From a virus (taxonomy: Duplodnaviria; Heunggongvirae; Uroviricota; Caudoviricetes): 5,707 nt of DNA. Position numbers and translations under genes: made by a program. Positions 1-5,139 of this stretch are shown in pieces. Numbering within the stretch: the stretch's first letter is position 1; each line of letters starts with the position of its first letter. Where the stretch lies: the IMG/VR virus record IMGVR_UViG_2695420430_000007; one strand, written 5' to 3'. The notes beneath the pieces are model-generated. The model worked only from the letters and a program-made list of their open reading frames with translations. It was not told the DNA's origin and made no database searches.

Positions 1-215
1 GTAACGACTGGCAGACGCTGGAGCTGGTGTTCACCGCCGGCAGTGCCACGGTTACTCCGAAACTGAATGGAGTGGCTGGCCCGGCATTCCAGGTTATAAA
101 AGACAGTCTGACACTGGGACTGAATGCGCTGACGCTGACGGATGTTACAAAAAATGCAGCGTATGGCGTTGAGATAGAAAGTCTGGTGCTGGAGATAAAT
201 GCACCCGCAGCATAA
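1..215 (+). CDS. 3' end of an unidentified phage late-region protein; gene starts upstream of the window
   Basis: Frame is open from the window start to TAA at 213..215. The translation (..NDWQTLELVFTAGSATVTPKLNGVAGPAFQVIKDSLTLGLNALTLTDVTKNAAYGVEIESLVLEINAPAA) is near-identical to the C-terminus of ORF 632..973. I do not recognise the family. Confidence 0.55.
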   Translation, partial: NDWQTLELVFTAGSATVTPKLNGVAGPAFQVIKDSLTLGLNALTLTDVTKNAAYGVEIESLVLEINAPAA

Positions 216-222
216 TAAAAAA

Positions 223-252
223 AGCCAGCGCCCACTCTGAAGGACGCTGGCT
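223..252. terminator. Hairpin AGCCAGCG-N14-CGCTGGCT preceded by an A-run; reads as hairpin plus T-run on the minus strand
   Basis: Perfect 8-bp inverted repeat at 223..230 and 245..252 with A-run at 214..223. On the plus strand there is no T-run after the stem, so it looks like a minus-strand intrinsic terminator or a conserved structured element. Confidence 0.4.
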
Positions 253-427
253 AAAACGGGTAGATGTACTTCACATGATACTTATATCTGGCAGTACATT
301 TTCTGACAGATAGTGACGGATGTTGTCAAGATATTGTGTCATTTATAACCTGAATCAGGGGAGGCCGGAATGTTATCTGGCATTTTTAGCAGAGCCTGAA
401 TGCCATAATCACGGCTCCCGGAGTTGG

Positions 428-463
428 CCGTCAGTGGGTGACACTGGCGGCTTTTTTGTTTTT
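428..463 (+). terminator. Intrinsic terminator-like hairpin plus T-run upstream of the truncated holin copy (copy of 1341..1376)
   Basis: CCGTCAGTG-GGTGA-CACTGGCGG stem-loop followed by CTTTTTTGTTTTTC. Confidence 0.45.
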
Positions 464-507
464 CTTTACTTTCATTTTCTGTCGGCGGTGACGGAGACAT
501 ACATCAG

Positions 508-627
508 ATGGAAAAAATCACAACAGGTGTGTCATACACCACGTCAGCGGTGGGGACGGGATACTGGTTACTGCAGCTGCTGGACAAAGTCTCTCCGTCC
601 CAGTGGGTGGCAATAAACCGTTCCTGA
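508..627 (+). pseudogene. Truncated pinholin copy: first 35 codons of the S21-like holin fused to 3 foreign codons, then stop
   Basis: ATG at 508 gives [36 protein letters not shown], matching the 1421 holin, then NRS and a stop at 625..627. Homology to the intact gene ends at 614. Confidence 0.7.
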
Positions 628-631
628 TGGT

Positions 632-973
632 GTGGCGATGACGGGTACCGGTAATCCGTTCCTGATGTCGTACTTCACTCAGACCACTGACGGCAGAGTG
701 AATCTGATGCATCACAGGAAAGCCGGAAACACGAAGCTGGGGGAGTTCGGCGGTTACGGTAACGACTGGCAGACGCTGGAGCTGGTGTTCACCGCCGGCA
801 GTGCCACGGTTACTCCGAAACTGAATGGAGTGGCTGGCCCGGCATTCCAGGTTATAAAAGACGGTCTGACACTGGGACTGAATGCGCTGACGCTGACGGA
901 TGTTACAAAAAATGCAGCGTATGGCGTTGAGATAGAAAGTCTGGTGCTGGAGATAAATGCACCGGCAGCATAA
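632..973 (+). pseudogene. Duplicated 3' fragment of the upstream unidentified gene (113 codons from GTG 632 or ATG 638)
   Basis: C-terminal 63 residues are near-identical to ORF 1..215. The frame opens at 617, directly after an in-frame TAA at 614..616, which is the duplication junction. No convincing Shine-Dalgarno precedes 632 or 638. Possibly still expressed. Confidence 0.5.
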
Positions 974-981
974 TAAAAAAA

Positions 982-1016
982 GAGCCAGCGACTGACCTGA
1001 AAGAAGACGCTGGCTA
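982..1016. terminator. Second copy of the A-run plus GCCAGCG/CGCTGGC hairpin
   Basis: GCCAGCG at 984..990 and CGCTGGC at 1008..1014, with A-run at 974..980. Diverged loop relative to the 223..252 copy. Confidence 0.4.
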
Positions 1017-1122
1017 AAAGGCCTTATATGTTTGTAGAGACTTATTTTTCACAGACAGCAATGATGCCTGTCAATATATTATCAATATGCGGATTGTTTC
1101 AGTTACAGATGCTTTATTAAGG

Positions 1123-1165
1123 AAAAAAACAGCCAGCACTGACTTTCGGTGGAGAGGTGCTGGCT
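1123..1165. terminator. Third copy of the A-run plus hairpin element (AGCCAGCAC/GTGCTGGCT)
   Basis: A7 at 1123..1129, perfect 9-bp stem at 1131..1139 and 1157..1165. On the minus strand this reads hairpin plus T7. Confidence 0.4.
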
Positions 1166-1235
1166 CAGAAGGATAGTTGGATTTCACATGATACTTATGC
1201 CTGGCGGTATATTTTCTGACAGACAGTGACGGGTG

Positions 1236-1262
1236 TTGTCAAGATATTGTGTCATTTATAAC
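1236..1262 (+). promoter_or_regulatory. Candidate sigma70-type late promoter (pR'-like), TTGTCA-N15-TATAAC; copy also at ~323..349
   Basis: -35-like TTGTCA at 1236..1241 and -10-like TATAAC at 1257..1262. The 15-bp spacer is suboptimal. A terminator lies ~80 bp downstream and the holin ~160 bp downstream, resembling the lambda pR'/tR' layout. Position-based inference only. Confidence 0.3.
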
Positions 1263-3183: not shown

Positions 3184-3651
3184 ATGAACCGTGTTCTGTG
3201 CGTGGTTATCATTGTCCTGCTGGTGGCCTGTGGTGCGCTTAGTCTGGGGCTGAATCATTACCGTGATCACGCCATCATCTACAAAGAGCAGCGCGATAAA
3301 AAAGCCAGTGAGCTGGAGCTGGCGAACGCGACAATTACTGATATGCAGATACGCCAGCGTGATGTCGCTGCACTTGATGCCAGATACTCGAGGGAATTAG
3401 CCGATGCGAGAGCTGAAAATGAAACTCTGCGTGCTGATGTTGCCGCTGGTCGTAAGCGCCTGCGGATCAACGCCACCTGCTCCGGTACCGTGCGTGAAGC
3501 CACCGGCACCTCCGGCGTGGATAATGCAACCGGCCCCCGACTGGCAGACACCGCTGAACGGGATTATTTCATCCTCAGAGAACGGCTGATGGCAATGCAG
3601 AAGCAACTGGAAGGAGCACAGGAATATATCCGTACCCAGTGTATACCGTGA
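3184..3651 (+). CDS. Rz: Rz i-spanin (inner-membrane spanin subunit), 155 aa
   Basis: From ATG 3184: [68 protein letters not shown].. matches my recollection of lambda Rz ([47 protein letters not shown]..). N-terminal TM helix then coiled-coil. The track ORF from 3127 is an upstream in-frame extension. Confidence 0.9.
   Translation: [155 protein letters not shown]
3404..3589 (+). CDS. Rz1: Rz1 o-spanin (outer-membrane lipoprotein), embedded in the +1 frame of Rz
   Basis: MRELKMKLCVLMLPLVVSACGSTPPAPVPCVKPPAPPAWIMQPAPDWQTPLNGIISSSENG: signal peptide with lipobox VSAC, proline-rich mature part, conserved PPAWIMQP..DWQTPLNGIIS as in lambda Rz1. Lies wholly inside Rz in another frame. Confidence 0.88.
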   Translation: MRELKMKLCVLMLPLVVSACGSTPPAPVPCVKPPAPPAWIMQPAPDWQTPLNGIISSSENG

Positions 3652-4838: not shown

Positions 4839-4944
4839 TTATTTCTCGTGGTTTGATGGCGTACACACATGTCGTGATAAACCTCATGTAGATGATAATT
4901 ATTATCATTTTCGTGGGTCCTTTCCGGCGATCCGACAGGTTACG

Positions 4945-4956
4945 GGGCGGCGACCT
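4945..4956 (+). other. cos: cosN: lambda-type 12-nt cohesive-end sequence GGGCGGCGACCT
   Basis: 4881..4989 closely matches the lambda right-end/left-end junction as I recall it (..CGACAGGTTACG|GGGCGGCGACCT|CGCGGGTTTTCGCTATTTATGAAAATTTTCCGG). Similarity stops at ~4990 where cosB begins. Confidence 0.85.
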
Positions 4957-4991
4957 CGCGGGTTTTCGCTATTTATGAAAATTTTCCGGGA

Positions 4992-5093
4992 TCCATGTCC
5001 GGTTTCTCTTCAAGTTAACTATATGAAAAATATAAAAACAGGTCTTCTGTGAACCGGACATGAACAAAAAACAGACATGTAAACCGGACATGA
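4992..5093. promoter_or_regulatory. cosB-like region: three copies of AACCGGACATGA (two direct, one inverted) flanking an A/T-rich segment
   Basis: AACCGGACATGA at 5052..5063 and 5082..5093; inverted copy TCCATGTCCGGTT at 4992..5004. A/T-rich 5006..5050 lies between the inverted and direct copies, mirroring the lambda R3-I1-R2-R1 layout with a different repeat sequence. A partial copy CAGACATG sits at 5072..5079. Confidence 0.6.
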
Positions 5094-5139
5094 CCGGTTT
5101 TGTTGTGATTGTGAGGTGAGAGTTTTTGCGAGGTGAGGA

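Follow-up and report, generated by a model that had tools for sequence, protein, structure and literature searches.

Hairpins in the late region of an Escherichia coli lambdoid prophage as the very probable terminators of Pas and EcOnc small RNA genes

Known Pas RNAs and the three hairpins

The Hfq-dependent small RNAs (sRNAs) PasA and PasC sit between sialic acid esterase and holin genes (PMC8550237; bioRxiv 10.64898/2026.05.13.724894). The published information used here comes from Pearl Mizrahi et al. 2021 (PMC8550237), Zhu, Shabalina & Storz 2026 (bioRxiv 10.64898/2026.05.13.724894), and Tree et al. 2014 (PMC4104026). In enteropathogenic Escherichia coli (EPEC) E2348/69, northern blots revealed that both RNAs are Hfq-dependent, and Table S6 of the same study places each opposite in strand to its neighbor genes ('> < >'), with a single PasA start and two PasA ends, at 743415 (85 nt, major) and 743264 (236 nt, minor) (PMC8550237). 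EcOnc51 and EcOnc52 are peaks of Hfq crosslinking and cDNA analysis (CRAC) in enterohemorrhagic E. coli (EHEC) Sakai; both are marked with a predicted Rho-independent terminator in Table S2 (PMC4104026) and named as Pas homologs in Table S6 (PMC8550237; PMC4104026). We compare these RNAs with the window, the whole 5,707-nt stretch of viral record IMGVR_UViG_2695420430_000007, in which a run of seven A residues and a GCCAGC…GCTGGC hairpin occur together at 217-252, 975-1015, and 1123-1165 (hairpins 1, 2, and 3). The three hairpins are almost certainly the Rho-independent terminators of leftward sRNA genes, namely PasC, a unit corresponding to EcOnc52, and PasA/EcOnc51. They are real and functional but previously described (2014, 2021, 2026), and what is new is limited to the tandem array, the interpretation of EcOnc52 as a degenerate paralog, and two unnamed unit types.

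The hairpins had been noticed in an initial annotation made from the letters of the window alone, whose coordinates are right within 1-2 nt. The pattern AAAAA-N0-4-GCCAGC-N8-34-GCTGGC is found at exactly three sites (217-251, 975-1014, and 1123-1164 on the plus strand; nine overlapping matches), with no occurrence in 200 dinucleotide shuffles of the window. All three hairpins have the stem arms GCCAG/CTGGC, the seventh stem pair is G-C in some and A-U in others, and the loop length varies from 8 to 17 nt. Folding predicts stable hairpins on either strand at all three sites, with energies for hairpins 1, 2, and 3 of -22.7, -16.0, and -16.3 kcal/mol on the minus strand and -18.1, -15.6, and -20.8 kcal/mol on the plus strand, and z-scores of -2.6 to -5.0 across both strands. 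The strands differ in what follows the stem. Seven U residues (U7) lie directly 3' of it on the minus strand only, in all three hairpins, whereas on the plus strand the stems are followed by UAAAAC, UAAAAG, or UCAGAAG, without a U-tract. The anatomy of an intrinsic terminator, a GC-rich stem followed by at least five U residues, is thus present in three of three hairpins on the minus strand and in none on the plus strand, which bears out the earlier view that these elements read as terminators only antiparallel to the late genes. The motif has a weak look-alike at 3298-3323 inside the i-spanin (Rz) gene, AAAAAA-GCCAGTGAGCTGGAGCTGGC, with a 5-bp stem and T6 on the minus strand; related loci have it too, and it is probably coding sequence that resembles the motif by coincidence.

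The identity of the RNAs follows from direct comparison. The northern probes of Table S6 for PasA (GCCAGCACTGACTTTCGGTGGAGAG) and PasC (CGCTGGCTAAAACGGGTAGATGTAC) (PMC8550237) match the window plus strand exactly, at 1132-1156 and 245-269, respectively, so the detected RNAs are minus-strand and contain hairpins 3 and 1. The E2348/69 loci, cut at their published coordinates and aligned to the window, agree with this placement. PasC (NC_011601 1290909..1290832; Table S6, PMC8550237) falls on 294..217(-), with its 3' part, 286..217, identical at 70/70 positions; PasA falls on ~1207..1123(-), with 64/68 identity over the 3' 68 nt; and the 236-nt PasA isoform extends to 974 at 96% identity (208/216), ending in the U-tract of hairpin 2. 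In Sakai, the EcOnc51 peak (2237479-2237555(+), prophage Sp12) lies inside a copy identical to the window PasA (85/85), and the EcOnc52 peak (1181998-1182075(-), prophage Sp4) overlaps a copy identical to the second unit (73/73; 1182081..1182009); with the Sakai record now at version.2, these peak coordinates may shift by a few nt. Sequencing of ligated, interacting RNAs (RIL-seq) lists pasA, pasC, and pasA.E2348C_0688.IGR as minus-strand RNAs with a U-tract of 7, found as RNA2 in 94-100% of chimeras, and in all of those with pasA.E2348C_0688.IGR (PMC8550237), a position that is the signature of an Hfq-bound sRNA 3' end. By their identity to published RNAs and peaks, all three hairpins coincide with experimentally seen RNA 3' modules, and the 3' ends that the initial annotation had expected at these sites are already in the published data. 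The phage 434 record annotates minus-strand terminators at two corresponding sites, and the order esterase-sRNA-holin, with the sRNA opposite to both genes, is found in the window as well as in the annotated homologous loci.

Family databases do not cover these RNAs. A Rfam 15 scan of the window (E<=1) returned no Pas family and only a rimP-leader match (E=0.9) at a hairpin at 2931-2977, which we regard as due to chance. A scan of eight related loci at the gathering score likewise found no family for the Pas RNAs, only STnc100/PasD upstream of the esterase, and the region is left blank by both Rfam and RefSeq/PGAP. The STnc100 matches (RF02076, the PasD family) lie at 696-868 in locus L002 and at 978-1195 in locus L044, so that in these related prophages sRNA genes lie on either side of the esterase gene, in agreement with the description by Zhu et al. 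The mentions of EcOnc in PMC12711010 concern EcOnc27, not the Pas locus.

Unit anatomy, putative promoters, and a proposed esterase target

Each unit has the same layout on the minus strand: TTGACA, a 17-nt spacer, TCAGAA (TGAAAA in the second unit), a body of ~40-50 nt, a stem of 8-11 bp, and U7. The PasC gene (78 nt) occupies 217..294(-), with its stem-loop at 223-252, an 11-bp terminator fold, and U7 at 217-223. Its putative promoter, 301..329(-), consists of a -35 TTGACA box at 329..324, the 17-nt spacer, and a -10-like TCAGAA at 306..301, ahead of the reported 5' end at C294. The second unit, 975..1039(-), which we read as a shortened PasC-like paralog corresponding to EcOnc52, has a stem-loop at 983-1015 and U7 at 975-981, and is preceded by a promoter-like sequence at 1046..1074(-) (TTGACA at 1074..1069, a 17-nt spacer, and TGAAAA at 1051..1046) with a predicted start at C1039. 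The PasA gene, an EcOnc51 variant of 85 nt, spans 1123..1207(-), with a stem-loop at 1131-1165 and U7 at 1123-1129; the candidate promoter lies at 1214..1242(-) (TTGACA at 1242..1237, a 17-nt spacer, and TCAGAA at 1219..1214), and the homologous 5' end is C1207. The reported PasC and PasA 5' ends (CTGCCA…), C294 and C1207, are 7 nt after the -10-like hexamer. TTGACA-N17-T(C/G)A(G/A)AA is conserved upstream of every unit, and these boxes would serve as the sRNA promoters. The initial annotation had noted a promoter-like plus-strand sequence, TTTTC..ACAGA.AG…TGTCAA.ATATT, after each hairpin. The sequence is indeed there, at 298-329, 1043-1078, and 1211-1242, with the middle copy shortened, but instead of a plus-strand promoter it would be each sRNA's own promoter on the minus strand. 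In addition, a 16-nt inverted repeat (90-105 versus 337-352, and also 848-862 versus 1251-1265; 15/16 complementary) pairs the esterase coding sequence CAGGTTATAAAAGACA with TGTCATTTATAACCTG just upstream of the Pas promoter. Such a repeat would enclose the entire PasC antisense region on the plus strand; the number expected by chance in a window of this size is ~0.2.

Of the mechanisms considered, the evidence best supports plain intrinsic termination of sRNA genes that run antiparallel to the late operon. Judging from the anatomy, the stem and U-tract would release RNA polymerase, and the same segment would form the Hfq-bound 3' module that experiments in EPEC and EHEC have demonstrated for copies of identical or nearly identical sequence. 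Hairpin 1 would end PasC, hairpin 3 would end PasA (EcOnc51 in EHEC), and hairpin 2 would end the shortened PasC-like unit (EcOnc52). Hairpin 2 may also act as a back-up terminator, with read-through of hairpin 3 giving the minor PasA isoform of ~236 nt; the corresponding read-through product in the window is 975..1207(-), 233 nt here compared with 236 nt in E2348/69 (alignment 1190..977). Within this long isoform, the arms of hairpins 3 and 2 can cross-pair both ways, and the long-range cross-paired fold (-51.7 kcal/mol, z = -1.4) is not significant. Lacking a U-tract, the plus-strand hairpins would let late transcription pass through. That the hairpins terminate transcription in this prophage is suggested by the RNA 3' ends reported at the homologous U-tracts.

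The PasA terminator stem may have a second role. The published PasA seed GCCAGCACCU (fig. S5, PMC8550237) lies at 1164..1155(-), which is the 5' arm of the stem, and the target motif published for PasA covers CUGGUGCUGGA, a site listed for the esterase genes E2348C_1246 and E2348C_0688 (table S8, PMC8550237). The window esterase has CTGGTGCTGGA near its 3' end, at 183..193(+) and again at 941-951, of which 8 nt are complementary to the PasA seed (CCAGCACC); GCCAGCACC in PasA would be the counterpart of this site. RNAduplex predictions for PasC, PasA, or the second unit against the esterase 3' end were no better than shuffles (17-53 of 300 as good), and the seed-target claim is drawn only from the published motif and plain 8-nt complementarity. 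Following the motif derived from RIL-seq, the 5' arm of the PasA stem would double as a seed for CUG(A/G)UGCUGG-type sites, one of which would be in the esterase mRNA itself.

Related loci, the tandem array, and competing explanations

We compared 142 holin-anchored loci drawn from viral contigs and species-representative genomes. PasA- and PasC-like units occur in Escherichia only, E. albertii included; the recurrence in related phages that the initial annotation asked for is found. Two further unit types, here called D and E, occupy the same site next to the esterase stop on the minus strand and have the GCCAGCG/CGCTGGC stem; their loop and body differ, and a TTGACA box lies ~75-80 nt upstream. 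Type E is present in 225 phage records, Stx2a (Shiga toxin 2a) phages among them, and type D in phage Evi and ten viral contigs. No EcOnc peak is listed for the type E unit of Sakai prophage Sp5. Locus L025 has a PasA-like unit right after the stop codon, with a GCCAGTAC/GTACTGGC stem, and the spacer type of 161-162 nt keeps a remnant, AAAAAGTGAGCCAGTC, with no hairpin.

The alignment of 14 distinct terminator sequences over a 10-pair stem supports the hairpin fold. The stem is 92.9% paired, compared with 21-52% in slid registers, and none of 500 shuffles reaches the observed scores. Compensatory changes on both sides are seen in five of the ten pairs (A-U/C-G at the base, C-G/U-A, G-C/A-U/G·U, and inner pairs). 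Together with the shared arms and the variable loops, these changes bear out the earlier statement that stem pairing is maintained while loops vary. The five core pairs (GCCAG/CTGGC) never vary and are therefore uninformative for structure; their invariance is compatible with a sequence-specific (seed) constraint and with shared ancestry alike. Wobble pairs give a mixed indication of strand, with PasC and type D favoring the minus strand and the inner stem of hairpin 3 favoring the plus strand.

The spacers also point to the origin of the three copies. The PasA-type spacer (444-448 nt) always holds the second unit and PasA, 148 nt apart. The promoter and terminator of the second unit align with those of PasC, its body is shorter by 15+3 nt, and it occupies the PasC position beside the stop codon; on these grounds, the PasA allele is read as an old tandem pair. 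For the window, we infer that this two-unit PasA allele was joined to a PasC allele upstream of it at an illegitimate junction. The rearranged stretch is 508..973(+), where the holin gene is cut after 614 and followed by an AAA filler and an esterase 3' fragment from 618 (open reading frame (ORF) 632-973). At base level, AAA joins holin codon ~36 to the interior of the second esterase copy. The upstream PasC-type allele thus extends from the esterase 3' end over PasC and the holin leader into the holin, of which it has 107 nt (to codon ~36), and the segmental duplication is apparent from the near-identity of 1-224 with 759-982 (99%) and of 246-545 with 1159-1458 (95%).

The 614/618 junction was found nowhere else. 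Megablast of 5,426 complete E. coli genomes returned only the normal esterase-holin order in two pieces, the junction is absent from the phage collection, exact-pattern scans found 0 matches in IMG/VR and in JGI metagenome contigs, and exact-protein look-ups of the junction ORFs among called ORFs found none. The nearest contig (L005) is 99.9% identical from 618 on and has ordinary esterase sequence before it; the first 617 nt of the window are missing from this contig and from the complete genomes. The arrangement may therefore be rare or an assembly artifact, and the lack of a shared k-mer at the junction counts against a graph chimera. According to Zhu et al., pasA copies are never <22 kb apart and are not tandem (bioRxiv 10.64898/2026.05.13.724894), to which the window, if real, would be an exception.

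Several observations weigh against reading the hairpins as Pas and EcOnc terminators. On the minus strand, a simple terminator scan called hairpin 1, and hairpin 2 in part, but missed hairpin 3; at 13-17 nt, the loops of hairpins 2 and 3 exceed the usual size for terminators; and hairpin 3 is the more stable on the plus strand (-20.8 versus -16.3 kcal/mol). The first 17 nt of the window PasA have diverged from E2348/69 PasA, despite the full identity with the Sp12 copy noted above. The -10-like hexamers match TATAAT poorly (2-3/6), and the mature PasA 5' end may come from cleavage, as Zhu et al. note (bioRxiv 10.64898/2026.05.13.724894), so the promoter assignment is one that we infer. Pas expression and Hfq dependence are known from E2348/69 and the identical Sakai copies, not from the source strain of the window.

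Three other functions for the hairpins were weighed against termination of sRNA genes. The initial annotation had offered RNA processing or stability, and the hairpins could indeed act on the plus-strand late mRNA as 3' stabilizers of the esterase message or as RNase processing sites before the lysis genes: they are stable on that strand, hairpin 3 even more so, hairpins 1 and 2 begin 8-10 nt past the esterase stop codon, and RIL-seq shows plus-strand RNA across the PasA 5' region (pasA.E2348C_0689.IGR). The analysis lent this proposal no support, and we consider it improbable, as the conserved U7/A7 run only makes sense for the minus strand and the U·G pairs of PasC variants and G·U pairs of L044 become C·A mismatches on the plus strand; moreover, minus-strand RNAs are documented by experiment, so that a plus-strand role would be at best additional. 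A notion with hardly any probability is that the hairpins are not sRNA parts but generic insulators against antisense transcription from rightward minus-strand genes. The window does have such an ORF between holin and lysozyme (1883-2197), and hairpins 3 and 2 in series resemble fail-safe terminators, but phage 434 and E2348/69 PP2 have the same hairpins without a minus-strand gene at that place, and the detected RNAs are only 78-85 nt long, begin ~80 nt upstream, and are preceded by a conserved -35 box. The earlier idea of antisense-transcription terminators thus holds for the minus-strand terminators themselves and fails for diffuse antisense; each hairpin would close a dedicated Hfq-bound sRNA gene of ~65-85 nt. 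Very unlikely, too, is the suggestion that the conserved stems are recombination hotspots responsible for the local rearrangements. The unit types do have flanks in common, with the esterase 3' end, U-run, and stem (~25 nt) to one side and the promoter and holin leader to the other, and they differ in the bodies and loops in between, as expected from exchange in conserved flanks; mosaicism by flanking homology, however, requires no special property of the hairpins, and the only base-level junction, 614/618, lies in holin and esterase coding sequence, far from any hairpin.

With termination of minus-strand sRNA genes as the preferred reading, the status of hairpin 2 is evenly poised between a mere back-up terminator or relic and the terminator of a separately transcribed third sRNA, EcOnc52. 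The body lost relative to PasC and PasA (15+3 nt) and the treatment of the unit's 3' end as a minor PasA end in Table S6 speak for a relic, and the EcOnc52 reads assigned to Sp4 may stem from identical copies elsewhere through multi-mapping, a further point that tells against an sRNA gene at hairpin 2. On the other side, a perfect -35 box and the CTGTCTGTGAAAAA block are kept in every copy seen, the EcOnc52 peak has its 5' edge no more than 1 nt from the predicted start C1039, and in RIL-seq this segment, with 5 partners of its own, shows the behavior of an sRNA 3' end. In Sakai Sp4, furthermore, IS629 parts the unit from any PasA unit and the peak is still called. That insertion (IS629/IS1203; 1131-1816 in locus L147) is 121 nt past the esterase stop and ~28 nt upstream of the unit's TTGACA, and removes the PasA unit; CUCUACAAACAUAUAAGGCC is specific to the second unit. 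A wider reading, which we put forward tentatively and hold to be rather doubtful as a whole, treats the esterase-holin spacer as a cassette site for interchangeable sRNA bodies, framed by a TTGACA promoter on one side and a terminator with the GCCAGCG/CGCTGGC stem at the esterase stop on the other. It would accommodate at least five body types (PasC, PasA, EcOnc52, and the unnamed D and E), with the second unit independent. Its arrays would grow by unequal or illegitimate recombination between co-resident prophage alleles, and the window would be a case caught in the act.

Genomic setting and comparison with known systems

The window covers the late region of an E. coli lambdoid prophage; sequences matching it are found in 395 phage records, for the most part of Stx-converting phages, and in nearly all complete E. 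coli genomes. Its genes run from the esterase 3' end (SASA/nanS-p, to 215) through a class II holin (1421-1627), a minus-strand ORF, and a signal-anchor-release (SAR) lysozyme (2315-2848) to the spanin, a PerC-family gene, a YlcI/YnfO gene, cos, and the terminase small subunit. Terminator-like hairpins of the form GGCCGTCAGTG…CACTGGCGGC, followed by T6-7, are present on the plus strand at 426-459 and 1339-1372, ~50 nt upstream of the holin start. The hairpin before the holin is annotated as a terminator in phage 434, and the unrelated 162-nt and type D spacers have an equivalent, AGCCATCAGT…ACTGGTGGCT, in which a compensatory change replaces A-T by G-C; a possible role is to shield the lysis genes from non-antiterminated transcription. 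The minus-strand ORF at 1883-2197 encodes 104 residues (a 90-residue hypothetical protein in RefSeq homologs) and is absent from phage 434 and E2348/69 PP2, where holin and lysozyme abut; it looks like a moron. The hairpin at 2931-2977, AAAACCCCG…CGGGGTTTT, is strong, has A- and T-rich flanks on both sides within the ~280-nt lysozyme-spanin spacer, and resembles a bidirectional terminator placed midway in the lysis cassette. A lambda-type cos, GGGCGGCGACCTCGCGGGTTTTCGCTATTTATGAAAATTTTCCGG, within 4941-5100, is followed by 3-4 copies of AAACCGGACATG in direct and inverted orientation (4994-5005, 5048-5063, and 5078-5093); lying upstream of the terminase small subunit gene, these are probably cosB-like terminase binding sites.

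Recognizing the hairpins as Pas/EcOnc elements keeps them from being re-reported as new and annotates the region blank in the databases. Pas sRNAs are among the most connected accessory-genome sRNAs in EPEC RIL-seq, and are enriched in EPEC and EHEC, near Shiga-toxin, esterase, and lysis genes. The identification in turn raises the questions of whether the middle unit is an independent sRNA and whether types D and E, one of them in Stx2a phages, make Hfq-bound RNAs. If real, the tandem PasC-EcOnc52-PasA array would be a natural three-gene variant in dosage and specificity.

The closest counterpart of the first unit is PasC of EPEC E2348/69 prophage PP5, which has the same position after the esterase stop, antiparallel orientation, terminator, U7, and exact probe sequence, and differs from the window at 1 or 2 of the first 8 nt. 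In the window, a truncated holin and a second esterase fragment come after PasC in place of an intact holin; E2348/69 has an insertion sequence there. PasA of E2348/69 PP2 is of the EcOnc51 type and has the same terminator, seed GCCAGCACCU, orientation, and location ~215-300 nt upstream of the holin, as well as the same pair of terminators, from which the 85-nt and ~236-nt forms arise. The first ~40 nt of the window PasA differ from the E2348/69 type, and the copy is probably of the 'PasA-2' class of Zhu et al. EcOnc52 in Sakai Sp4 resembles the second unit in lying on the minus strand next to the esterase stop with a predicted Rho-independent terminator, whereas in EPEC its 3' end is described only as a minor PasA end, not as that of a separate gene.

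More distant comparisons are with AgvB/AsxR and with terminators in general. Like the Pas RNAs, the anti-sRNAs AgvB and AsxR (RF02702/RF02703) of EHEC lambdoid prophages are short and Hfq-bound, lie in the late-region 'moron' zone against the direction of the late operon, and combine a conserved 3' terminator with a variable 5' part. They differ in being 51-60 nt long and located downstream of Q/stx and upstream of the esterase, and neither family matched the window in the Rfam scan (E<=1), where no likeness in sequence or structure was seen. With canonical intrinsic terminators, the three hairpins share the GC-rich stem of 8-11 bp, the immediate U7, and compensatory substitutions. They depart from them in the large and partly structured loops of hairpins 2 and 3 (13-17 nt) and in the PasA stem, which reportedly serves as a seed as well.

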